64,000 bases of DNA from Acidiferrobacteraceae bacterium (GCA_003228915.1 QIGL01000102.1:3519-67518); one strand, 5' to 3'; positions 2,484 to 63,672 are shown, counted from the first letter of the stretch. The notes: generated from the letters alone by a model not told the origin. Numbers and translations: made by a program.

Positions 2484-4598
2484 TTAGGCTTTTTCTCCAA
2501 AATATATTTCTTTTGCACGATCGGTAATCTTATTGACAGTAACATTGTCTTTAATTTCTTTGTCAACAAGATTTATGTCTTTTAATGTTTTCGTACGCCA
2601 CCCCACTAATTGATGTGACTTATCAATTAGCGCTGAAACCTCCCCAGCTCGCATTTCTCTATCTTCTGAATACAATACTTCCAGTATGTCCAGCTCAACC
2701 TCTTCGAGTTTTAAATCGTCATTTAGTGTTTGCAATTCATTTATATAGTCATCGGACAAAGACACTTCGCTACATCTTCCTTGTTTACATTCTCTACACT
2801 GCCAATCGAAGTATTTTATTTTATCTCTATCTTCTATAGGGTATGTTGCGTCACATATATCACATTTAATAGTCACTGTTGAAGCAAGAAACTGGTGAAT
2901 AACACTATTAAATGAAAAGCATCTTTGAACAAAATAGCTACGATCATCTCGACGACCCTTGGGATAACCCCACGCAAGCCTCTTGTCTTCACATAGGCCA
3001 TAATTCAAGCAGTAAACGGATACATCCTCGCCAGATTTATTCCTCATCTCGTGGTATTTTGTGACTAGAAAATTCAACTCCAATGAAGCTAACATGGGCT
3101 CTAATGTTGGGTAAATTGTAAAGTGACTCACGGGAGGATTACTTAATCTTTCAAAATACTTCCCTCCAACTTCACCTGTTGAGATTTTTGATTTTAATGA
3201 CCCAGCTTCCGAAGTCAGCTTTTCCAGTAGAATTTGTTGATTGCGACGGTCTAGCTTTCTTGAAAAAGGTTCAGTAGCAAAACGGTTTTTTCTATCAAAA
3301 TAAGCAGATAGCACTTTCTCATAATGCTTTTTTGAGGCAAGCCTAATGCTTTGTAAGGTTATTTTTTCACTTCGAGATATTTGATCAAGATAGCAAGTGT
3401 GAAGTATATGGCCAATTAACCTAGGGACATTAAAGGAAACCTGAAATAGTAGCGAGTAATATTCTTTTAATTCCACTGCTGATGAGAAGAAATCAACAGG
3501 GTTAATACCAAAAGATCGAAACCTATTTTCTAATAGCCTCTTAGTATAGTCAGTGGCCTTTTCCTCCATAGTCTGAACTTCACTGCTTTTATACAGGTTA
3601 AAAAAGTCCAAGTTAATGATGTCAATTTTTCCTGGGTCTATATTTCCGTAATAAACTCGCCCTGGGTAAGCAGCCACCTTTAGTTTTATCTTCTCATCAC
3701 TAGTATTGTTCAGCGGCGCAAGTATAACATCGACAAATAACCTTTGATCAATCCAATTTAGCTCTGAGAAATCGTCAAAAAATACAATCAGACTTGAAAA
3801 AGAAAGTTCATCCAATAATGACGAAAGTTTTATAATGAAATCTTGATAGGGGAAGGTTCTTAACACGGCGCTTGAATATTTAGAATATAATTCATCATCA
3901 TCAAGCACCTCATCGACACTACCTGATCTTAGGTTGAAGCTGCCTGTTGGAAGAACAGGGTTTGCTGAAACCTTAACTTCAGCCGACTCATCTTTTTTAT
4001 TTAATGATCGATGTCTATTTTTGGCCTCATTTTCTATAGATTGCAAGATCGGAATTTCGGTTTCGTTCATAATTCCACTTCTAACCTGCTCCTTGAGCTT
4101 ATTTAATTCTCTTTGCAGATCCTCGTACTTCCAATGCTTACCTAAAAATCTATCAACAATCCCTGTTTTTTTACAGATGCCATCTAATTCATCTATGAGC
4201 CTTGAGAACACCTCGATTAAAAATGATTTCCTAAGTAGGTGCGGCTGTATTACTTCATTATCAAACTCATAACCATCTGGAATTTTTGATAGAACGTCAG
4301 ATGTTTGTGAGCTTTCGTTAATAGATTTAACATCTAAGTAGACAGACAGAGATTCCTTTTTAGTTCTTATCTCTGATTGTGCTCTAGCTATTATCGTACT
4401 CTTTCCGGTGCCTTTTCGTCCAAACAAAAATGTCGTGTTGCCAGAAAGAACTGTGTCTAGGACGGCATTATTCTCAAGAGGGTCAACATAAACAGCGTCG
4501 ACGGGTCTATCGCCGAGCTCAGCCTCAAATTCTTTAAGTTCAGCTCTCTGAAATTTTCTTAGTGATTCCGCAACTCTTGAGAACTTTTTGTGTTCCAT
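2484..4598 (-). CDS. Large P-loop NTPase with 4-Cys ribbon and C-terminal winged-helix-like domain; family not recognised
   Basis: 704-aa ORF, ATG preceded by gaggaaggaag RBS; Walker A GRKGTGKST (aa 60-68, nt 4395-4421); Walker B-like LIVFFDDFSE (aa 270-279); CDIC...CRECKQGRC (aa 579-609); very AT-rich. Confidence 0.75.
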   Translation of the reverse strand: MEHKKFSRVAESLRKFQRAELKEFEAELGDRPVDAVYVDPLENNAVLDTVLSGNTTFLFGRKGTGKSTIIARAQSEIRTKKESLSVYLDVKSINESSQTSDVLSKIPDGYEFDNEVIQPHLLRKSFLIEVFSRLIDELDGICKKTGIVDRFLGKHWKYEDLQRELNKLKEQVRSGIMNETEIPILQSIENEAKNRHRSLNKKDESAEVKVSANPVLPTGSFNLRSGSVDEVLDDDELYSKYSSAVLRTFPYQDFIIKLSSLLDELSFSSLIVFFDDFSELNWIDQRLFVDVILAPLNNTSDEKIKLKVAAYPGRVYYGNIDPGKIDIINLDFFNLYKSSEVQTMEEKATDYTKRLLENRFRSFGINPVDFFSSAVELKEYYSLLFQVSFNVPRLIGHILHTCYLDQISRSEKITLQSIRLASKKHYEKVLSAYFDRKNRFATEPFSRKLDRRNQQILLEKLTSEAGSLKSKISTGEVGGKYFERLSNPPVSHFTIYPTLEPMLASLELNFLVTKYHEMRNKSGEDVSVYCLNYGLCEDKRLAWGYPKGRRDDRSYFVQRCFSFNSVIHQFLASTVTIKCDICDATYPIEDRDKIKYFDWQCRECKQGRCSEVSLSDDYINELQTLNDDLKLEEVELDILEVLYSEDREMRAGEVSALIDKSHQLVGWRTKTLKDINLVDKEIKDNVTVNKITDRAKEIYFGEKA

Positions 4599-4715: not shown

Positions 4716-5552
4716 TTAATTTTTCTTTGGATTCTCCGTCACATTCGTACCACCAGACACATCTGTTATTATTGAGCTAGGTCTTAACCCAAGTTCTGGA
4801 TCATGTAGACCTAATCCTGTAGGTCGAGTTAGTCCCAAGCTGGCTGGCCTAGAAATTCCAAAACCTACGTGTCTGTTATCCAAAAAATCTCCAAAACCGC
4901 CTAAGCCAATCCTTTTGTCCAATAATTCCTTTTCAAGAACAGCTATTTGTTTTTTCTTTTCTTTCACTTCATCATCAAGCCTTTTGCGCGCATCCTCTGA
5001 TGTTCCTTTTTTCTCAACTAGCTCATTTTTTAAACTTTGCAACTCTTCTCCCCTTCCATCTAGTTGTTGCTTTAAATCACTAATTAAACCAATCTGAGTT
5101 TTAATATCTGCTTCTGGCACAATATCCGTCCAATTCTCTACAGAATTAACAGTTTCTTCTTCTAATACGTTACATATTGCTATTATTTCTTCATAATTTC
5201 TCTTCGTGACTTCAGGATGAATTTTAATATCTCCATCACTGCCTATAAAAAGTGAAACTCTTTTCTCAAGTGCAGAAATATTTCGTAATAATAATTTAAG
5301 ACTACGGACTGCCGACTTACCACGAGCAACAACAACTCCACCATCTGAAATATCAACCCAATGTTTTGTAATTCGACCACCCAAGATCGCAGATGCTGCA
5401 GTAATTAAAACAAACAAAAGCGAAGTAATTTTCTTGTCTGTCTGATCAATTGAGAATAAAAATAGCAGCAGTACCCCGATACTCAGCACGAGAGTCCATG
5501 GATCCAAAGCAATACCAATAAACGATATCCACTTACTTTTTAAATTTTTCAT
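4716..5552 (-). CDS. Membrane protein with 2 predicted N-terminal TM helices, coiled-coil region and Gly/Leu-rich tail; family not recognised
   Basis: 278-aa ORF; hydrophobic stretches WISFIGIALDPWTLVLSIGVLLLFLFSI and ITSLLFVLITAASAILGG; charged heptad-like segment; 117 nt upstream of the NTPase gene on the same strand. Confidence 0.65.
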   Translation of the reverse strand: MKNLKSKWISFIGIALDPWTLVLSIGVLLLFLFSIDQTDKKITSLLFVLITAASAILGGRITKHWVDISDGGVVVARGKSAVRSLKLLLRNISALEKRVSLFIGSDGDIKIHPEVTKRNYEEIIAICNVLEEETVNSVENWTDIVPEADIKTQIGLISDLKQQLDGRGEELQSLKNELVEKKGTSEDARKRLDDEVKEKKKQIAVLEKELLDKRIGLGGFGDFLDNRHVGFGISRPASLGLTRPTGLGLHDPELGLRPSSIITDVSGGTNVTENPKKN

Positions 5553-5756
5553 TCAGAATTACTCTTGTTGGGTATAATAGAATACGTGGCTGCTTAACTT
5601 AATACTTCACCAGCTAGTAGAATACTCTCTCGTTACACAATCTTCTATAAAAATTTACCTGTACCTCAATTAAAATTAGGTCGTTCTTACAAAAATTCTG
5701 CTAGATTCCAATCAAACCTACCTTGGAATGGTTGCAACAGTGGCCTCAATAAATCT

Positions 5757-5971
5757 AACCCGCTCCCGAATTAACCCCTGAATATTCCTAAACGCCTGCT
5801 CACGATAACTGCCCTTCTATACAACAATCCAATACGTCTACTGGGTTTGGCATCTTTCTTTGTTTGCTTTTTGGGGCCTGCAAGCTCGGGCATGAGCGTT
5901 AGCCCCATCCCCTCGGCTACCATAAAGCGCAGGGTTTCCAGGCTGGATGCATGAAAGGCGGCGTTTTCTGT
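5757..5971 (-). pseudogene. Degenerate duplicate of the 3' end of oxyR
   Basis: Aligns to 8110-8352. The ~95-nt segment 5877-5971 vs 8258-8352 has 1 mismatch. The remainder is diverged with indels (about 28 nt shorter), so it cannot encode the OxyR C-terminus. Confidence 0.85.
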
Positions 5972-5982
5972 CTAAAATCTGG

Positions 5983-6049
5983 ATTCCCGTTTCCACGGGA
6001 ATGACGGGAAAGACGGGAAAGACGGGCAGATAATGTTGGAATGACGAGA
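5983..6049. repeat. ATTCCC-N8-GGGAAT hairpin followed by reiterated GACGGG units
   Basis: attcccgtttccacgggaat at 5983-6002, then gacgggaaagacgggaaagacgggcagataatgttggaatgacgag; same module recurs at 7871-7919. Confidence 0.8.
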
Positions 6050-6113
6050 CTTGTGATATTGGGTTGTGTGATACGCGCTTCCGAAATTAGCAGCACCTAT
6101 TCATACCTGGCTG

Positions 6114-7406
6114 CTATTTCTTGCTATTCAAGCCTTCAAAAGCAAAAGGATTTAAAAACTGTCGTCCCCAAAAAAGATTTCTATCCACTTTGCTTAACTC
6201 GGCCTCATCACAAACTTCTTGCCAGTATTTCTCAATTATTTCTTTTTGATGCTCAAAAATAGCCAGGGCTTCCTCTTTTGAGAGCAGGAAATGATGGGCA
6301 GCATCTATGCCGCTTGAAATCCTGCTCATGCGATTATCGCCAGCAATTAACATGGCCTGCGAGGCTTCATTACCAGTTCTGCCCTGGGGGCATATATCAT
6401 AGGCGGGGGTTAGGGAGAGCATTTTTCCATCCCAGAATGCCGCATGGTTGCGCGCATGATCATCAGTATTGCCGCATAAGATATTAAAAATTAAACGCGA
6501 GAATAATTCTTTCAGCGTAGCGGCAGGTGCTGTGAATTTATGGCGAATAATTTCTGTAAGGGTTTCATAGCTGGCATATCTTGCCATCATTTCGTCAAGA
6601 CCAAACAGTGTTAATGCTGAAATCATGGACTGACGTTGCCAGCCATTTTTTACTTTCTTGCGATCAAATCGTTCAACCAGCAAAACATCTTTACGGGATG
6701 CTTTCTTGAGCTTAACAGGGGCCACCTCTAAACCGACATGCTTTGCCAATCTCATGGCGATAAATTCTGCCTTGACGATGCTGTATAAATCAGAGCTTAA
6801 AGGAAATTTTGCGACATACTTTTTGTTTTCAGCCTCAATGAGTGCTTTTGGTCGGGCACCGCCAATCGCGCTGCCATGAAACAGGGCTTGATCTAATTCC
6901 GGCGTAAGCGGAACGCCTGCTTCAACACGTTCGGTTGATTTTAATAACTCGTCTAGCGCAACATTGACAGATGAGCGCGGCACATATTCGGTTGGTGACA
7001 ATTGAAAATCGAGCGCGCCAACACGGTCTGATCCAGATTCCAGTAGATAAGTTAGCTCATCAAGCCGGGTTGTATCTGTATCCGCGCCTTTCAGTCCCAG
7101 CTTTTTGTTAATAATAACACGCCGTCCCCATGCGTCTGGCGCACCATCCCTAATACATCCAGGCATGTTAAGACCATCCAGCAAAGGCAAAACACCTGCC
7201 CTTAATGGCAGCTCTTTTTCATAAATAGATATTGCCTGTTTTGTACCTGGCCCTGAATTGTTAGCGCGCTCCAAATAACTTTTGCCGTAATTGAACATAA
7301 GGCTGCCATTATCGGCTTCAAGCTTACCTGCGATCACAGGCGCTGTGTCCTGTGGCAGCCAAATCCAGACAAAGGCTTCGTTATGCGCTGCGTTAGAAAT
7401 CATCAT
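6114..7406 (-). CDS. hipA: HipA-family serine/threonine kinase toxin
   Basis: 430 aa; catalytic-loop-like GNTDDHARNHA; 14-nt overlap with the upstream XRE-HTH gene. Confidence 0.85.
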   Translation of the reverse strand: MMISNAAHNEAFVWIWLPQDTAPVIAGKLEADNGSLMFNYGKSYLERANNSGPGTKQAISIYEKELPLRAGVLPLLDGLNMPGCIRDGAPDAWGRRVIINKKLGLKGADTDTTRLDELTYLLESGSDRVGALDFQLSPTEYVPRSSVNVALDELLKSTERVEAGVPLTPELDQALFHGSAIGGARPKALIEAENKKYVAKFPLSSDLYSIVKAEFIAMRLAKHVGLEVAPVKLKKASRKDVLLVERFDRKKVKNGWQRQSMISALTLFGLDEMMARYASYETLTEIIRHKFTAPAATLKELFSRLIFNILCGNTDDHARNHAAFWDGKMLSLTPAYDICPQGRTGNEASQAMLIAGDNRMSRISSGIDAAHHFLLSKEEALAIFEHQKEIIEKYWQEVCDEAELSKVDRNLFWGRQFLNPFAFEGLNSKK

Positions 7407-7731
7407 CTACCGCCCTTATTTTTTTGCGCACGGATTTAGGCAGTAATGCCAATTTATCTTCAGTCTGACGGATATGCCTTGTGAGTCTTGTTGCATCGAC
7501 ATCAAACAGCTTGACGCCAACAAGCGTGGCAACTTCAAATACTGCACCGATCTCACATTTTAGATCACCTTTCTCTATACGTTGAAGTAGCCCTCTTGAG
7601 ATGCCTGCACGCTCAGCAACCTCCTGGGTTGTAAGCTTGCGCTCTTTTCTGGCAATCCTGATCAGATTGCTTATGAGCTGTACTGCTTCCCGGCTATACA
7701 GGGAATAGGTGCGTGTCTTTGATTTAGGCAT
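7393..7731 (-). CDS. hipB: HipB-like XRE-family HTH antitoxin
   Basis: 112 aa; LTTQEVAERAGISRGLLQRIEKGD helix-turn-helix; immediately upstream of and overlapping hipA. Confidence 0.8.
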   Translation of the reverse strand: MPKSKTRTYSLYSREAVQLISNLIRIARKERKLTTQEVAERAGISRGLLQRIEKGDLKCEIGAVFEVATLVGVKLFDVDATRLTRHIRQTEDKLALLPKSVRKKIRAVDDDF

Positions 7732-7870
7732 ATTTACGTATCTGGTCTATATATAACTCATAATACATCTTTGTGATCTCTATATAGATCAAATTAGCAC
7801 TAGAGTTGCGTGAAATCAAGAAAGTATGTCGATATGTGTGAAATTCCTGTCTTTTTTAACAAAACTCTGG

Positions 7871-8030
7871 ATTCCCGTTTCCACGGGAATGACGGGCAGA
7901 TAATGATGGAATGACGAGGTATGTCGTGCTGGAGTGACGGGGATGACGGGGATGACGAGGTAGGTCGGGTATGACGGGTATGACGGGCAGATAATGATGG
8001 AATGACGAGGTATGTCGTGCTGGAGTGACG
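7871..8030. repeat. Hairpin repeat plus 49-nt direct repeat and short (A/G)TGACG(G/A)G tandem units
   Basis: attcccgtttccacgggaat 7871-7890; gacgggcagataatgatggaatgacgaggtatgtcgtgctggagtgacg at 7891-7939 and 7982-8030; gatgacgggg/tatgacgggt units between them. Confidence 0.85.
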
Positions 8031-8097
8031 ACATCAGCAGCAATAAATCGCCAAGTTTTTTAGCTCTCGATGTCAGTGTGTAATATGGTTCTGTCAC

Positions 8098-8991
8098 TTA
8101 AAGGTCACCAACCCGCTCCCGAATTAACCCCTGAATATTCCTGAACGCCTCCGCACGATAGCTCCCCTTGCGATACAACATGCCGATGCGTCTGCTGGGT
8201 TTGGGTGCTTCGAATGGCAGGTAACGTATCGCATCTTTTTTTGATTGCTTTTTGGGCACTGCAAGCTCGGGCATGAGCGTTAGCCCCATCCCCTCGGCTA
8301 CCATAAAGCGCAGGGTTTCCAGGCTGGATGCATGAAAGGCTGCGTTTTCTGTGGCGCCGGCCATGAAGCAAACATCCAGCGCCTGGTCACGCAGGCAGTG
8401 GCCTTCTTCCAGTAATAGCATTTCACGGTTATTGAGATCGCCCATGGTTATCATTGGCTGGCTGGCCAGTGGCTCGCCCGCAGGGACTGCCAACAGAAAA
8501 GGCTCTTTAAATAACTCCAGCTCGCTGAATTCTTCGGTTTCCACCGGCAGGGCCAGTATCAAAAAATCCAGCTCGGCGCGGCGGAGCTTCTCAAGCAATA
8601 CCGAGGTCTGGTATTCATGGAGCCACAACTTGAGCTTTGGCCAGGTTTTACCGAGGGCAGGCATAATGGCTGGTAGCAGGTACGGCGCGATGGTGGGGAT
8701 CAGCCCTGCGTGCAATTCCCCGGCCATAGGGTCTTCAAAACTCTGGGCAATCTCCTGGATGCCTTTTACATCGGCCAGTACTTTTCTGGCCATTTCGGCC
8801 ACGGCTGAGCCAGCATTGGTCATGGCTACCTGCCGGGTATTACGCTCTACCAGTAATACGCCCAGCTCCTGCTCCAGCTTTTTTAGCTGGCCACTCAATG
8901 TGGGCTGGCTGACAAAACAACGGGCAGCGGCCTTGTGAAAATGGCGTTCTTCATCAATGGCGACCAGGTATAGCAATACTCGTAAATTCAT
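8098..8991 (-). CDS. oxyR: Hydrogen-peroxide-sensing LysR-family regulator OxyR
   Basis: N-terminal HTH ...VSQPTLSGQLKKLEQELG; EEGHCLRDQALDVCF keeps both redox cysteines (E. coli C199/C208 context); divergent from a peroxiredoxin gene. Confidence 0.9.
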   Translation of the reverse strand: MNLRVLLYLVAIDEERHFHKAAARCFVSQPTLSGQLKKLEQELGVLLVERNTRQVAMTNAGSAVAEMARKVLADVKGIQEIAQSFEDPMAGELHAGLIPTIAPYLLPAIMPALGKTWPKLKLWLHEYQTSVLLEKLRRAELDFLILALPVETEEFSELELFKEPFLLAVPAGEPLASQPMITMGDLNNREMLLLEEGHCLRDQALDVCFMAGATENAAFHASSLETLRFMVAEGMGLTLMPELAVPKKQSKKDAIRYLPFEAPKPSRRIGMLYRKGSYRAEAFRNIQGLIRERVGDL

Positions 8992-42405: not shown

Positions 42406-43797
42406 TTGAAACCTTCTAATAAGAAAATTTTTGTCCTCGACACCAATGTGTTGATGCACGACCCTGCTTCCATTTTCAGATTCCAGGAGCATGATGTTTA
42501 TATTACAATTGCTGTATTAGAAGAACTTGATAAACACAAAAGAGGGCTTTCTGAAGTCGCCAGAAATGTCCGCCAGGCAACCCGTTATCTCGATGACCTG
42601 GCAAAAACTGCAAACGGGGATATTTCCAAAGGCATTCCGCTTTCCCAACAGCTGGATAAAAGCTCTGGCGGTAACCTGTACTTTTATGTTGAAGCCTCAC
42701 GCAGTCCACTGCCTGCCGGACTGGAGATTGCGGGTACAGATAATGCCCTGCTTGGCATCACCCATGATCTTGACAAGCATCACCCGGATAATGAAGTCAT
42801 CCTTGTAACCAAGGATATCAACTTGCGTATCAAGGCCCACGCATTACATATCCAGTGTGAAGATTACACGAGTGACCAGGTAGTAGAAGACGCCGATTTA
42901 CTGCACACAGGCACAACCTGTCTCGCTAATGATTTCTGGGATGAACATGGCAAGGAAATGGAGTCATGGCAAGAAGAAGGACGGACATTCTACCGAATAA
43001 CCGGCCCACTGATAACAAGCTGGCACCCAAATGAATTTATCTATACTGAAGACGACAGTTTCCAGGCCATTGTCAAAGAAATCAAAAATGATTCTGCCGT
43101 TATCGAAACTCCGAAAGATTACACCTCGGATAACAACAGTGTTTGGGGAATCGTTGCCCGTAACAGGGAGCAGAACTATGCTTTGAACCTGTTACTGGAT
43201 CCGGAAATTGATTTTGTCTCTTTACTTGGCGCTGCAGGCACCGGTAAAACACTGTTATCCCTTGCGGCCGGGCTGACACAGACCCTGGAACATAAAATAT
43301 ATAATGAGATAATTGTTACCCGGGTAACCATACCCGTCGGTGAAGACATTGGTTATTTGCCCGGCACGGAAGAGGAAAAAATGGGCCCCTGGATGGGCGC
43401 ACTGGAAGACAATCTTGAAGTACTGCAAAACTTCCAGCAACAGGAACATGGGTCATGGGGCCGGGCAGTGACCGAAGATTTGCTAAAACAAAGAATTCAC
43501 ATCAAGTCTGTTAGCTTTATGCGGGGCCGGACTTTTCTGCGCAAGTTATTAATAATTGACGAGGCACAAAACCTGAGCCCGCAACAAATAAAAACCCTGG
43601 TCACCCGGGCCGGGCCTGAAAGTAAAATCATTTGCCTGGGCAATTTGTCACAAATCGATACCCCTTATCTCACGGAAACCACCAATGGCCTGGCCTATGT
43701 CGTCGATCGTTTCCGCCAATGGCAACACAGTGGACATATTACATTACAACGTGGCGAGCGCTCGCGCCTGGCGGATTTTGCAAACGAAGCCTTGTAA
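42406..43797 (+). CDS. PhoH-like ATPase with N-terminal PIN domain (YlaK-type); TTG start
   Basis: FVLDTNVLMHD PIN start; Walker A GAAGTGKT; IIDEAQN Walker B; ORF begins with TTG at 42406. Confidence 0.8.
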   Translation: MKPSNKKIFVLDTNVLMHDPASIFRFQEHDVYITIAVLEELDKHKRGLSEVARNVRQATRYLDDLAKTANGDISKGIPLSQQLDKSSGGNLYFYVEASRSPLPAGLEIAGTDNALLGITHDLDKHHPDNEVILVTKDINLRIKAHALHIQCEDYTSDQVVEDADLLHTGTTCLANDFWDEHGKEMESWQEEGRTFYRITGPLITSWHPNEFIYTEDDSFQAIVKEIKNDSAVIETPKDYTSDNNSVWGIVARNREQNYALNLLLDPEIDFVSLLGAAGTGKTLLSLAAGLTQTLEHKIYNEIIVTRVTIPVGEDIGYLPGTEEEKMGPWMGALEDNLEVLQNFQQQEHGSWGRAVTEDLLKQRIHIKSVSFMRGRTFLRKLLIIDEAQNLSPQQIKTLVTRAGPESKIICLGNLSQIDTPYLTETTNGLAYVVDRFRQWQHSGHITLQRGERSRLADFANEAL

Positions 43798-60075: not shown

Positions 60076-61095
60076 CTAATCTGGTTTTTTACTATTTTTA
60101 ATTAAGGTTCTCAAATCTTTCATCATCCCGGGCAGCCTGCCAACACACGCCTGCTCTTTCATCACCTGCTTAATATTATGGGCAGGTATACCCCAAACCA
60201 TATCACCGGCTTCAACATCCCGGGCAACCCCTGATGCGCCAGCAATAATCGCAGCTTCACCAACCGTAACGTGATCAGAAATTGCCGAATTACCACCCAC
60301 AAGCACGCCCTTCTTGATAATTGCGCTGCCAGCAACGCCAGATTGTGCTGATATAGCGATGTGTTCGCCCAGGTCCACATTATGGGCAATCTGCACCAGG
60401 TTATCGAGTTTGGTGCCCCGCCCGATGCGGGTGACGCCAAACGTGGCCCGGTCAATACAAACATTACTGCCCATTTCTACGTCATCTTCAATCACGATAC
60501 TGCCAAGCTGTGGAATCTTGACCTGATTTTCACCGTCTCGGGCATAACCAAAACCATCGGCACCGACCACGGTACCGGCATGAATAATGACTCGATTACC
60601 CAGGGTGCACCTCGCCTGCAGGGTCACATTCGGACCGATCCGGCAATCCTCGCCTATGGTCACATTGACGCCAATATGACAGCCAGAATCAATACGGCAG
60701 CCTTTGCCTACTTTGACACCAGCGCGTATAACGACGCACTCAGCAATGGCCACATCATTAGCTATCTCGGTATCAGGATCAATGACTGCACTTTTATGAA
60801 CACCCTCTGCAGGGCCGTCATCTTCCTGGTACAAAACCATGATCTGTGCAAAAACCACTTTCGGGTTTTTTACTTTTAATAAATTTTTGTTTTTTGTCTC
60901 GGGAAAATCCTCACCAACAATAACCAACCCGGCAACTGATGCCGCAACTTGATCCTGGTGTTTATTCTTCTCGGCAAAGGTGATTTCGCCTGCTTTGGCA
61001 TGGTCCAGGCTATTGATGCCAGTCAAAATTGTTTCGTGGTCACCTATGAGTTCTCCCCCAAATTTTTCCTGGACTTCCCTGGCTGTAATTGACAT
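60076..61095 (-). CDS. lpxD: UDP-3-O-acylglucosamine N-acyltransferase
   Basis: 339 aa; N-terminal LpxD domain followed by many hexapeptide (LbH) repeats. Confidence 0.85.
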   Translation of the reverse strand: MSITAREVQEKFGGELIGDHETILTGINSLDHAKAGEITFAEKNKHQDQVAASVAGLVIVGEDFPETKNKNLLKVKNPKVVFAQIMVLYQEDDGPAEGVHKSAVIDPDTEIANDVAIAECVVIRAGVKVGKGCRIDSGCHIGVNVTIGEDCRIGPNVTLQARCTLGNRVIIHAGTVVGADGFGYARDGENQVKIPQLGSIVIEDDVEMGSNVCIDRATFGVTRIGRGTKLDNLVQIAHNVDLGEHIAISAQSGVAGSAIIKKGVLVGGNSAISDHVTVGEAAIIAGASGVARDVEAGDMVWGIPAHNIKQVMKEQACVGRLPGMMKDLRTLIKNSKKPD

Positions 61096-61367
61096 TGGTT
61101 TCTGCTTTGTTGTTGACGATTGGTAAATTTATATCAAATTTGGCCGTGGAAAACTAAAATTTTTCTTGTTCTTGGCTGATAGATCATAGGATTTTTTTAA
61201 CACTTTACCGCAATTTCAGTGAAAACTCAGGCCTAGAATTCTTCATGCCGTGACCTCTACTTTTGGCATCAGTTATAAAAGTGGGGGTAGTCTAATTTGA
61301 CCCCTTTTATTCTTTTAACACCTTTTTAAATTATCGGTGTCCCTTTATTCCAAATGGAATAAAAAAA

Positions 61368-61634
61368 CTAATCATCATGCAATTTTTCCTGCAACCATAC
61401 TTTTATCAGGGACTGATAGGGTACATCACGGGCATGTGCCGCTGATTTTATAGAGTCCAGAAGATGTTGAGGAAGGCGCAGCGAGATTGTTTTCGTTGTC
61501 GGTTTCAGGTTCGGCATAACCACCTGTCTTGCTTTATCCCAATCCAGGTAGTCTGAGGAATCATTTTGCTCCCAGAAGCGTTTTTCCTCTTCTTCACTTG
61601 CAAAGTGTGGTATCGCTTTAAGTCGTTTTTTCAT
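61368..61634 (-). CDS. brnA: BrnA-type antitoxin
   Basis: 88 aa; C-terminal ribbon-helix-helix-like ISLRLPQHLLDSIKSAAHARDVPYQSLIKVWLQEKL; overlaps the brnT stop. Confidence 0.8.
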   Translation of the reverse strand: MKKRLKAIPHFASEEEEKRFWEQNDSSDYLDWDKARQVVMPNLKPTTKTISLRLPQHLLDSIKSAAHARDVPYQSLIKVWLQEKLHDD

Positions 61635-61917
61635 ATATTGCTCGCTCTTTTTTGTGCATATCCCTGGCTGATATTACGCGAATATTTTTTCCAGCATGTC
61701 GCAGTGTAAACGTGATGTGTAATTGCCGTTTATCATCTGATTTACCTAATGCGTGGAAGCGGGGTTCCTGAGTATTGTGTTTGAAATCTTCCAGTATCAG
61801 TAATGGTGCATTGAAAAAAATCTGTTCCGCCTCCGCCATTGAAACACTGTGCTTTTCGTTCTTTCGGACGTTTCCTTCGTCCCAATCGAACCCCGTGATA
61901 TTCGCTAAACTTATCAT
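61618..61917 (-). CDS. brnT: BrnT-family ribonuclease toxin (DUF497)
   Basis: FDWDEGNVRKNEKHSVSMAEAEQIF matches the BrnT signature (F-WD..K...N..KHGV). Confidence 0.8.
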   Translation of the reverse strand: MISLANITGFDWDEGNVRKNEKHSVSMAEAEQIFFNAPLLILEDFKHNTQEPRFHALGKSDDKRQLHITFTLRHAGKNIRVISARDMHKKERAIYEKTT

Positions 61918-62227
61918 TAATGTATATTATGATAATATACAAAAATGATGAGGTCAATAGTCATGAACATACAACAAAGGGGACACCGATAACTTAAGCA
62001 TTAACCAACTCACCCCACTCTAATCCTTGTTGTTGGCTGTATTGCGCACCCCGTTTACTTGCCTTTGAGATTGCAGGTTGACTAATTCCCAGGTAATTTG
62101 CTATTCCTGTGGACAATTAAACCTCCCCCACTTCAACGGATACTTTTAATCAGAGACAATAGTCTCTCAAAGGAGTGCCCCTTCCTTTTGGCATCAGTTA
62201 TAAAAGGGGTGATTACCATGCCATATT

Positions 62228-62578
62228 TTATTTTTCTTGTTGTTTCGTTAATGCCTGTTCCAATTTTGGCAGATCCTGCTCCACGACACTCCAGATTGCA
62301 TCCAAATCAACGCCCAGATAATCATGAACAAGGATATTGCGAAATCCAGAAATTTCTTTCCAGGGAATATCCGGATAGGTCTTCTTTACATCACCAGCCA
62401 AACGCTGACTGGACTCCGCCATGACTTGCAAATTCCTGACGACGGCATCTTGCACTAAATGAGAGCTATAAAACTGCTCCTTATTTTCAACATACTCATC
62501 AATACGCTGGACACAGTCCAGCATGTGCTCAATATAAATCGAGTCGTCCTTCGTGGTCTCCTTACCTTTTCTATTCAC
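62228..62578 (-). CDS. hepT: HepT-family (DUF86) RNase toxin
   Basis: R-x4-H motif in GFRNILVHDY; 116 aa; 4-nt overlap with the upstream nucleotidyltransferase gene. Confidence 0.8.
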   Translation of the reverse strand: MNRKGKETTKDDSIYIEHMLDCVQRIDEYVENKEQFYSSHLVQDAVVRNLQVMAESSQRLAGDVKKTYPDIPWKEISGFRNILVHDYLGVDLDAIWSVVEQDLPKLEQALTKQQEK

Positions 62579-63177
62579 AGCGCTCTCGCTTCATGCAGCA
62601 CTTTATCTCTTATCCTGGGGTGCAATGATTTTTCTGTCACCACATCTACTTTGCGGTGAACAAGTTCAGATACATCAGCCAAGAACCCGCCCAGCGCCAA
62701 ACCCGATTTACCTTTTTCAATATCGACCAGCAAGTCCAGGTCACTATCCGACCGGGCTTCATTACGTGCCATCGAGCCAAACACCCGTACATTGCGGACA
62801 CCATTTTCACGTGCAATCGTTAATATCTGGCTCCGATATTGTTCAACAATGTTGTTCATCTTCGTTTGCTGGCCCTTGCTCTCCTCCATGACCTGGCCGG
62901 TGAGTTTCAGCAGCATCCGGCTCAACTCTTCATAAACCGGGCACTCGGTATTTGCACGATACTGAACCTGGTTGCCCACCGCCTTCTTCATCAACACGCC
63001 AGCCTCTGCCAACCGGGTCAACTCCTTATGCAGGGTACCGGCCACCGTCCCGGTTAGCCGGGCAATTTCCCGGACGTGATAATGCCTGTCAGGATGGAGT
63101 AGTAGTAAACCCAGAACACGCCTGCGATAATCCCTGAAAAGTAACTCTGCTAGTTTGGAAGACACGATAGACCTCAA
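62575..63177 (-). CDS. mntA: MntA-type nucleotidyltransferase antitoxin with N-terminal wHTH extension
   Basis: GSMARNEARSDSDLDLLVD (GS-x9-12-DxD NTase motif) in the C-terminal half; ArsR/MarR-like wHTH in the N-terminal half. Confidence 0.75.
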   Translation of the reverse strand: MRSIVSSKLAELLFRDYRRRVLGLLLLHPDRHYHVREIARLTGTVAGTLHKELTRLAEAGVLMKKAVGNQVQYRANTECPVYEELSRMLLKLTGQVMEESKGQQTKMNNIVEQYRSQILTIARENGVRNVRVFGSMARNEARSDSDLDLLVDIEKGKSGLALGGFLADVSELVHRKVDVVTEKSLHPRIRDKVLHEARAL

Positions 63178-63596
63178 GTGTTGCTTTACTTGCTACAATT
63201 GTAGCTATTATTGCTACATATTCAAGTTATCAACGATATTGCTCATGTAATCAGCTAGTTAGTAGATAGCATGCCATATTTCTATCCCGCTGAGACTTAC
63301 TTTTTAGTCCCCTCTGCTTTCAGCTCCTCAATCCACTCTTTCATCGCCTTGTCCAGCCACAGGCACTCGCTGCCTTTCATCCCCTTGGTGGTCACCGGGC
63401 GATAATTCAATCTGGTAGAAACAGAATAAATCAGAATGGGGAGCTGCCACCACTTTCAGAGGCGTATTGTGTGCTCTATGTAACACCAGAGAGAAAAACT
63501 GGCATAAAATACTGGATCACTAAAACCTTTGGCATGATGAAATGATTTATAAAAAGAGTCATTGATACCTGACCCGGGTTTTGATGAAGAAAAAAA

Positions 63597-63672
63597 TGGT
63601 GGGGCGTGCAGGAATCGAACCTGCGACCATCGGATTAAAAGTCCGGTGCTCTACCAACTGAGCTAACGCCCC
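63597..63672 (-). tRNA. tRNA-Lys (anticodon UUU)
   Basis: Reverse complement GGGGCGTTAGCTCAGTTGGTAGAGCACCGGACTTTTAATCCGATGGTCGCAGGTTCGATTCCTGCACGCCCCACCA folds as a cloverleaf; anticodon loop CTTTTAA; encoded CCA. Confidence 0.95.

Follow-up and report, generated by a model that had tools for sequence, protein, structure and literature searches.

Probable relics of one TIRtron derivative between toxin-antitoxin operons beside tRNA-Lys in an Acidiferrobacteraceae bacterium

We analyzed a stretch of 64,000 nucleotides (nt) of DNA from an Acidiferrobacteraceae bacterium (GCA_003228915.1, QIGL01000102.1:3519-67518; hereafter, the window), in which two toxin-antitoxin (TA) operons, mntA-hepT and brnTA, lie between a tRNA-Lys(UUU) gene and lpxD and are punctuated by copies of a 21-nt repeat (21-mer). 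The array is probably composed of two autonomous TA operons interleaved with three directly oriented relics of one derivative of a TIRtron, without an integrase. As read from the sequence, the 21-mer is the junction of a deletion derivative of this transposon, at which 13 nt are joined to codon 250 of the transposase gene. The 21-mer would punctuate the array because this derivative is present three times. The two TA operons are self-contained, each with its own predicted promoter and palindromic operator, and would function independently of the relics. An earlier note on this DNA had described serial accretion of small cassettes at an attachment site. Accretion is a fair description of the outcome, and the spot beside the tRNA gene is indeed variable; however, the repeat reads as a transposon relic, and the mechanism that had been proposed does not stand.

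The 21-mer and its transposase junction

The exact 21-mer TTTTGGCATCAGTTATAAAAG occurs twice in the window (copies 1 and 2 in Table 1). The earlier note had located copy 1 correctly, whereas its position for copy 2 was off by one (62185-62205 instead of 62186-62206). No further copy was found in the 64-kb window when up to three mismatches were allowed (expectation 0.01). The similarity of copies 1 and 2 stretches to 35 nt at 86%, and the counterpart in the strain L084 is a 43-nt repeat at 91%. A degenerate third copy with an insertion had also been reported, and this was confirmed: the composite pattern TTTATAA-N0-14-ATGCCAAA, which was drawn up post hoc after inspection of the data, is present three times in the window, always on the minus strand and at the three junctions, where 0.02 occurrences are expected. 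Copy 3 is conserved in the strains L001 and L086. The 21-mer is not a ubiquitous dispersed repeat. A scan of metagenomes with the 19-mer TTATAACTGATGCCAAAAG returned this locus, one unrelated conserved gene (8 contigs) and 4 singletons, and nothing else. In the eight contigs (L087-L090, L092, L095, L097 and L099), the 19-mer is present once each in one common unrelated context, which is apparently the coding region of a widespread gene, that is, a chance match multiplied by homology. The motif GGGGTCA is not enriched in the window.

TIRtrons are the elements of the TIRYTs, tyrosine (Y1, HUH) transposases associated with terminal inverted repeats (TIRs), whose TIR motif is GGGGWSAS (Di Nocera et al. 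2013; PMC3733652). They also correspond to subclass 2.1 of the TnpAREP-like proteins of Quentin et al. 2018 (PMC6006769), which has a C-terminus of the Bac_DnaA_C or helix-turn-helix (HTH) type (HTH_23 or HTH_28). In L084, the segment between copy 2 and brnTA (segment V) contains an intact open reading frame (ORF) of 66 amino acids (aa), which is in frame with the repeat and matches Bac_DnaA_C (0.0015). When the transposase from the locus L109 was compared with L084 by tblastn, its aa 241-322 matched nt 780-1031, and this match ran across the repeat (E=2e-29). P0158, an intact TIRYT of 322 aa that falls into one 90% cluster with the L084 ORF, shows identity at 68 of 73 positions (93%), starting exactly at AKR250. 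The last 8 nt of the 21-mer, GCC AAA AG, are TIRYT codons 250-252 (AKR). The L084 ORF is one of a family of fragments of 57-104 aa, all of which end in LSQDLTP and are 3′ pieces of the 322-aa protein; the truncation codons at other loci are aa 204, 209, 257 and 259. Because all three copies in the window share the codon-250 junction and the other loci are cut at different codons, the three copies appear to come from one deletion derivative.

Within the window, the 60 nt past copy 1 resemble those past copy 2 of L084 (z=7.1). This stretch holds a decayed TIRYT fragment, which from position 61243 on is shared with the sister species L003. Segment V of the window is similar in DNA to segment V of L084 (p=0.007) and reads as its frameshifted relative. 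Before copy 1 stands a relic of a left TIR, oriented as a left end should be if the transposase gene comes next; a long TIR of the GGGGWSAS type is thus represented in the window by this relic (17/19). A Y1 domain was not found in the window, where tblastn with the full-length protein gave a best E of 1.5. Therefore, the window holds relics and not an element. The 21-mer is not the tRNA-proximal attachment site that the earlier note supposed: it is not derived from the tRNA, has no attC-like fold and sits in a TIRYT pseudogene fragment, with homology 60-230 nt beyond it.

An intact TIRtron of 1017 bp was found at 5952-6968 of L109 (also in L110), with perfect 33-nt TIRs, TAAGGGGTCAAATCTTGACTTAACATATTAAAG, starting GGGGTCAA. 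Its right TIR overlaps the transposase stop codon. The start GGGGTCAA agrees with the GGGGWSAS consensus at 7 of 8 positions, and an origin of the GGGGTC... ends from the Tn3 family or from Tn3-derived inverted-repeat miniature elements (TIMEs), which we had considered, was superseded by this published TIRYT motif (PMC3733652). The 24-nt TIR core is conserved in L084, L105, L106, L108, L109 and L110, with an identical sequence in six loci, and is invariant though the transposases differ by about 30%; viral contigs contained no match to it. The full-length 322-aa protein (L108 and L109) matches Y1_Tnp (2e-13) and Bac_DnaA_C (5e-8), both above the Pfam cut-offs, and its best NCBIfam model is "REP-associated tyrosine transposase", below the model cut-off. 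More than 5,300 homologues were obtained at E<=1e-30, mostly of 322 aa, in Acidiferrobacteraceae, Methylococcales, Thiotrichaceae, Thiodiazotropha and others; plasmid matches reach 33-37% identity only. The TIR also contains ATATGTTAAGT, which by eye agrees at 9 of 11 positions with the XerD arm of the E. coli dif site; no XerC arm was apparent. The pdif (XerC/D) modules carry 28-bp dif-like sites (11-6-11), inverted around the module.

The loci related to the window thus share the 322-aa protein with Y1_Tnp and Bac_DnaA_C, long TIRs starting GGGGTCAA, and a right TIR over the 3′ end of the gene. In comparison, the window has a 3′ gene fragment and a left-TIR relic, which are decayed pieces without the Y1 domain. 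Published TIRtrons consist of one gene each, and their TIRs may be solo, dimeric or grouped; internally deleted derivatives alternating with TA operons are not described in the two papers (PMC3733652, PMC6006769). The TIRYT/TIRtron family is published and little studied. It shows signs of mobility, namely the intact 1-kb element with perfect 33-nt ends, the invariant TIR core and the multiplied, internally deleted derivatives.

Boundaries of the array and the ends around brnTA

L003 is a metagenome-assembled genome of a related Acidiferrobacteraceae species, with an lpxD product 82% identical at the aa level and the same downstream synteny. The gene order there is a YeeE-like gene, tRNA-Lys, about 550 nt, lpxD, an outer-membrane protein gene and an HD-GYP gene, and the spacer between tRNA-Lys and lpxD contains no TA genes. 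The tRNA-Lys flank of the window is homologous to L003 down to position 63569, and the homology resumes at 61243; the first break is 13 nt beyond the outer edge of copy 3, and the second is 18 nt beyond that of copy 1. Because of these breaks, we conclude that the array of about 2.3 kb was inserted and that the outer repeat copies mark its limits. That the TA units are acquired insertions, as had been suggested, agrees with their absence from the sister species. In another relative, L100 (lpxD 86%), the contig breaks at the lpxD-side boundary, at the equivalent of about 61237. The spacer of L003 holds at 5545-5713 a GTAG-tagged REPIN (a paired repetitive extragenic palindromic, or REP, sequence) with 30-nt perfect inverted arms (5594-5623 and 5646-5675) nested in 27-nt arms. 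Therefore, the same spot there also receives Y1-mobilised repeats.

The array is common to the near-identical strains L001, L002 and L086. L084 is 96-97% identical to the window over mntA-hepT and brnTA, whereas segment V is only about 50% identical; the breakpoints of this swap are at the 21-mer and at GTGTCCCC. An array of identical content in all relatives, which would have spoken against accretion, was thus not observed: the inter-cassette segment differs in L084, and L003 is without the array. Around lpxD homologues of less than 75% identity, the synteny is lost. The intergenic region between tRNA-Lys and lpxD is a permissive spot, which varies among strains and species.

In L001 and L086, which are two independent assemblies, the tRNA-Lys 3′ end (CCTGCACGCCCCACCATTTT, 20 nt) is duplicated, with the additional copy about 42 nt past the first (L001, 1242-1261 and 1307-1326; L086, 42-61 and 107-126). 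This duplication is a classical att scar, as left by integrase-type elements; the TA units are not bounded by it, and it has no relation to the 21-mer. In the window, the tRNA-Lys 3′ end occurs once, at 63612 on the minus strand. A derivation of the repeat from the tRNA 3′ end was rejected, given this single copy and a likeness (CCCCAC...TTTT) that is loose and by eye only. A sigma-54 or sigma-70 promoter inside the 21-mer was also rejected, since the match is poor by eye and is absent from the calls of the promoter scan.

The earlier note had described inverted repeats that bracket BrnTA. These are present and are 21 nt long with 19 of 21 matches. Their GGGG ends face the operon, and they read as the ends, turned towards each other, of two neighboring elements and not as those of a brnTA cassette. 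The same arrangement is seen in L084: the right TIR core (…TTTGACCCC) followed by …GTGTCCCC stands before the brnTA promoter, GGGACAC… followed by GGGGTCAAAT… stands after brnA, and the GGGG ends are always towards the operon. As far as these ends can be read, brnTA is flanked on one side by the right end of a relic and on the other by the left end of the relic that follows. We therefore rejected brnTA as the cargo of a miniature inverted-repeat transposable element (MITE) or mobile insertion cassette bounded by inverted repeats, since in the TIR relics and in the 21-nt repeat alike, the GGGG ends point towards the operon. Such an inverted repeat is absent from the brnTA of L107 (63% DNA identity). 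In L108, a similar inside-out repeat of 37 nt surrounds two small ORFs between a truncated and a full TIRYT, which are in direct orientation and share a 227-nt repeat at 98%.

Assembly of the array and competing explanations

We infer that the array was assembled by recombination between the relics or by their transposition, and the recombination is more likely to have been homology- or transposase-based than integrase-based. The most likely route would be that segments composed of a relic and the adjacent TA operon were looped out and in by recombination between direct relics, in which case the identical patch of 21-43 nt would be the crossover scar. Such a process would account for three features: in copy 2, resident upstream DNA (hepT) would have been linked to a fresh transposase fragment; in copy 1, the old L003-like fragment would have received incoming upstream DNA (brnTA and the left-TIR relic); and the two copies match fully (21/21) at their meeting point, with divergence beyond it. 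Alternatively, a non-autonomous derivative may have transposed repeatedly with TIRYT supplied in trans. The strain difference in segment V may reflect gene conversion from other TIRtron copies. In IS26 translocatable units, direct copies of IS26 alternate with resistance genes, and a copy with its adjacent DNA loops out and re-enters, leaving chimeric copies with a crossover patch. By analogy, the direct copies of one element alternating with cargo in the window may be likened to such arrays. However, IS26 belongs to the DDE elements and has a conservative reaction dedicated to this process, whereas the repeats in the window are dead Y1/HUH fragments, and recombination between them is more likely to be RecA-dependent.

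Several observations weigh against three relics of one TIRtron derivative. The first 13 nt of the 21-mer (TTTTATAACTGAT) are not recognisably derived from TIRYT. When profiles were built from the 3′ end of the transposase with L084 left out, they missed both the repeat and segment V of the window. The homology inside the window consists of about 10 codons, the TIR relic at 17/19 and synteny with L084. Past copy 3, no transposase similarity was detectable, so that the third relic is known by its junction motif only. No circular or excised form and no donor locus was observed, nor did the same genome show an intact TIRYT. The 21-nt repeat around brnTA (GGGGACACCGATAA…) was found at this locus only among 110 loci, and its reading as a second type of TIR has its fit to GGGGWSAS as sole basis. 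Finally, TIRYT copies or relics adjoin toxin modules in 5 of 6 contexts, a count that was made without a control set and serves as a lead only.

The contexts are as follows. In the window and L084, the neighbors are the two TA operons. L105 has an array of PemK, VapBC-like, PemK and HepT-MntA units with three direct GGGGTCAGAG… repeats, and L107 has brnTA. In L109 and L110, a truncated PIN gene (VapC-like, 85 aa) with a ribbon-helix-helix partner gene lies 16 nt from the right TIR, which suggests that the L109 TIRtron was inserted into or beside a TA locus. L106 has no toxin module. The alternating layout of relics and toxin modules is seen in L108, L105, L107 and L109. In L108, positions 19-1460 hold the last part of an RHS-repeat core (…YDPSIGRFISADP…), whose C-terminal toxin tip has no assigned family, and then two paralogous small membrane ORFs (immunity-like) directly upstream of the truncated and full TIRYT. 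L105 carries a 156-nt MITE-like element at 2984-3139 with 29-nt inverted repeats (GGGGTCAGACTCAATGCCAGTAAGTTAAG), and at 5894-8357 three direct copies of GGGGTCAGAGTAACATTAATTAGCATTTTCT and a 117-nt repeat punctuate PemK, PEP-CTERM and HepT-MntA units. L105 thus provides another toxin array with repeats between its units, in which the TIR variant is a different one.

These contexts bear on a more active role of the transposase, in which a Y1 protein acting in trans would act on a left end and a right end that belong to different copies and thereby excise and re-insert a relic together with a toxin module. TA and polymorphic-toxin modules would in this case be true cargo of composite TIRtrons, and transposition instead of host recombination would have built the array. 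We regard this as doubtful. It is favored by the alternation of direct copies or relics with toxin modules (window/L084, L108, L105, L107 and L109), by the perfect conservation of the TIR core among divergent transposases, which suggests that the ends are under selection, and by the shared junction, which shows that the derivative multiplied. However, the window contains no intact TIRYT, and its units are not transposition-competent, because copy 2 has no left TIR, segment V of the window has no right TIR core and copy 1 has no right end. In addition, an identical brnTA or mntA-hepT unit was not found in a second genomic context, and PMC3733652 and PMC6006769 yielded no experimental data on the activity of TIRYT. 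A passage of the latter (PMC6006769, citing Ton-Hoang et al. 2012) states that the E. coli REPtron locus is replaced by a toxin/antitoxin operon in some strains. In that passage, as here, a Y1 locus (of the REP-associated tyrosine transposase, or RAYT, type) and a TA operon are found at one variable chromosomal spot; the replacement that it mentions is at one locus without an alternating array, and its Y1 subclass is associated with REP and not with TIR sequences. That TIRYT elements form an accretion platform based on an HUH transposase, which captures, loops out and re-inserts TA and polymorphic-toxin/immunity modules, or that they prefer TA loci, is likewise an unlikely proposal at present. 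If it were true, it would give rise to toxin arrays punctuated by repeats in sulfur-oxidising, Acidiferrobacterales-like Gammaproteobacteria and would be the Y1 counterpart of IS26 translocatable units or of integron cassette arrays. If the toxin association were upheld under control, it would provide the first biological context for TIRYT elements and a new route of TA-array assembly.

Accretion by an integrase would make the 21-mer the att core of a tyrosine or serine recombinase encoded elsewhere, and the TA units would be decayed integrative elements. Such elements are known as cis-mobilizable elements (CIMEs), which lack an integrase and are accreted in tandem at tRNA genes, for example at tRNA-Lys in streptococci. 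The window resembles CIMEs in having small integrase-less units by tRNA-Lys with direct repeats between them; direct repeats stand at every junction and bound the variable region, and the 20-nt duplication in L001 and L086 shows that integrases have used this tRNA. However, the repeats of CIMEs are att sites from the 3′ end of the target gene, whereas the repeat in the window is a transposase-gene junction at least 40 nt downstream of the tRNA and is not tRNA-derived. It lies inside a transposase fragment with homology well past any plausible core, has no dyad-symmetric binding arms, and in metagenomes its 19-mer was found only here and by chance in one unrelated conserved gene. Moreover, tRNA-targeting integrative islands have direct repeats of the tRNA 3′ end and an integrase gene by the tRNA, and neither is present here. 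Among 30 ORFs of the window (160-474 aa), none matched integrase families at E<=1e-5, and no such ORF lies between the tRNA and lpxD; the absence of an integrase from the window, which had been reported earlier, was thus borne out. We consider the integrase explanation improbable.

The chance that the locus is a cluster of attC sites lacking integron integrases (CALIN), in which the repeats would be attC sites, is almost nil. Like integron arrays and CALINs, the locus consists of small, co-oriented TA units with a repeat 3′ of each and no integrase nearby, and the motif contains GTTATAA/TTATAAC, which is loosely like the attC core consensus GTTRRRY. In contrast, integron cassettes are mostly promoterless and carry attC, whereas each operon here has its own predicted promoter and the repeat is coding-derived. 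When the three junctions were folded as single strands on both strands, no imperfect hairpin of 55-140 nt was obtained (Z -2.2 to +0.07), and the sole hairpin has the polarity GTT...AAC, opposite to R''(RYYYAAC)...R'(GTTRRRY). The attC reading was rejected because no junction has an attC-type hairpin. Very little probability was also given to the absence of any common origin, in which the copies would be convergent terminator or regulatory motifs or chance. A hairpin or T-run precedes every copy, CTTTTATAA could act as the tail of a terminator, and a further repeat, AAATATGGCATG, is borderline chance. This idea is already refuted for copies 1 and 2 by their 21/21 identity (0.01 expected), the 43-nt repeat of L084 at 91%, the similarity past the repeat (z=7.1) and the coding origin of the repeat; it is possible for parts of copy 3.

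If the three repeats are relics of one TIRtron derivative, as we favor, the apparent integrase-less cassette system is of a known kind, namely a tRNA-adjacent hot spot with TA operons and transposon scars, and the repeat is explained to the codon.

Genes and flanking features

The positions of the features are listed in Table 1. On the 3′ side of tRNA-Lys, the order is mntA, hepT, brnT, brnA and lpxD, all on the minus strand, and a YeeE-like membrane protein gene lies upstream of the tRNA. The earlier note had placed BrnT-BrnA and HepT-MntA between lpxD and tRNA-Lys(UUU) on this strand, and Pfam and ARAGORN support this placement. By sequence, brnTA is a type II TA system, with a toxin-first overlapping operon in which both domains are above the Pfam cut-off. 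MntA/HepT is assigned to type II (type VII), with a nucleotidyltransferase antitoxin gene followed by a HEPN-type HepT toxin gene. MntA had been described as fused to a winged HTH domain; the N-terminal extension of about 100 aa is present, and the winged HTH identity is plausible, but all of its matches are weak and below threshold (DUF4423 6e-4, MarR_2 0.007 and DUF7342). One gene remnant had been claimed in the array, and two were found, at 61987-62185 and 63297-63410; the 37-aa ORF at the latter had no Pfam match.

Table 1. Features between lpxD and tRNA-Lys(UUU) in the window, listed from the tRNA side
Feature	Position	Strand	Remarks
tRNA-Lys(UUU)	63597-63672	minus	ARAGORN; Rfam tRNA, 77.6 bits; conserved left anchor of the variable region
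Terminator-like hairpin and T-run	63556-63575	minus	Directly past the tRNA; T-tail enters repeat copy 3; terminator scan
Repeat copy 3, degenerate	63528-63556	minus	CTTTTTATAA-[ATCATTTCA]-TCATGCCAAAGG; same X|GCCAAA junction with a 9-nt insertion
ORF remnant, 37 aa	63297-63410	minus	No family assigned
Second copy of AAATATGGCATG[C/G]TA	63267-63281	minus	14/15; first copy directly before repeat copy 2
Predicted sigma-70 promoter of mntA-hepT	63225-63198	minus	Promoter scan
Palindrome over mntA-hepT promoter	63179-63218		Likely operator, judged from sequence
mntA, antitoxin	63177-62575	minus	NTP_transf_2 (PF01909) 5.4e-14; Polbeta 9e-11
hepT, toxin (HEPN RNase family)	62578-62228	minus	HepT-like (PF01934) 2.3e-27; 4-nt overlap with mntA
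Repeat copy 2	62186-62206	minus	Exact 21-mer TTTTGGCATCAGTTATAAAAG; gene strand TTT ATA ACT GAT|GCC AAA AG
Segment V	61987-62185	minus	Probable frameshifted pseudogene of TIRYT 3′ end (DnaA_C-type HTH); right TIR core lost
Inverted-repeat right arm	61977-61997		AAGGGGACACCGATAACTTAA; starts GGGGACAC, 8/8 to GGGGWSAS; GGGG end towards brnTA
Predicted brnTA promoter	61957-61929	minus	10/12 match; promoter scan
Palindrome over brnTA promoter	61910-61952		Likely operator, judged from sequence
brnT, toxin	61917-61618	minus	BrnT_toxin (PF04365) 4.2e-22
brnA, antitoxin	61634-61368	minus	CopG_antitoxin (PF12441) 1e-33; 17-nt overlap with brnT
Inverted-repeat left arm	61326-61346		GGG end towards brnA
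Left-TIR relic	61306-61289	minus	AAGGGGTCAAAT-TAGACT, begins GGGGTCAAAT...; 17/19 to L109 left TIR, p=0.004 against shuffles
Repeat copy 1	61261-61281	minus	Exact 21-mer TTTTGGCATCAGTTATAAAAG
Decayed TIRYT fragment after copy 1	61200-61260	minus	AKSRGHGMKN; P0158 has AKRGHGMKN
lpxD paralogue	61095-60076	minus	Pfam LpxD and Hexapep; conserved right anchor

The earlier note had also reported that catgccatattt follows both the hepT stop and the remnant ORF. It is present in both places, within a 15-nt repeat (14/15) at 62214-62228 and 63267-63281; by our estimate, this AAATATGGCATG repeat is borderline chance. The hairpin at 63556-63575 weakly resembles a TIR of the GGGGTCAG type (p=0.03-0.07 against the TIR-like sequences of L105).

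In the Rfam scan, the tRNA was the sole family found. A sub-threshold match to "Plastid-ycf2 5'UTR" lies antisense to tRNA-Lys (63599-63672, plus strand; 39.7 bits, gathering threshold 65.7) and is almost certainly spurious, caused by tRNA-like sequence within the model. The lpxD gene at 60076-61095 is solitary and lies outside any bamA-skp-lpxD-fabZ-lpxA cluster. Its closest relatives beyond its own lineage are at most 50% identical, and homologues of 72-74% share no synteny; it is probably a horizontally acquired paralogue. Elsewhere in the window, a homologue of HipA_C kinase toxins (2e-47) is encoded at 6114-7406 (minus strand) and a fusion protein of PIN_4 and PhoH at 42406-43797 (plus strand), and the genome seems to be rich in toxin-type genes.

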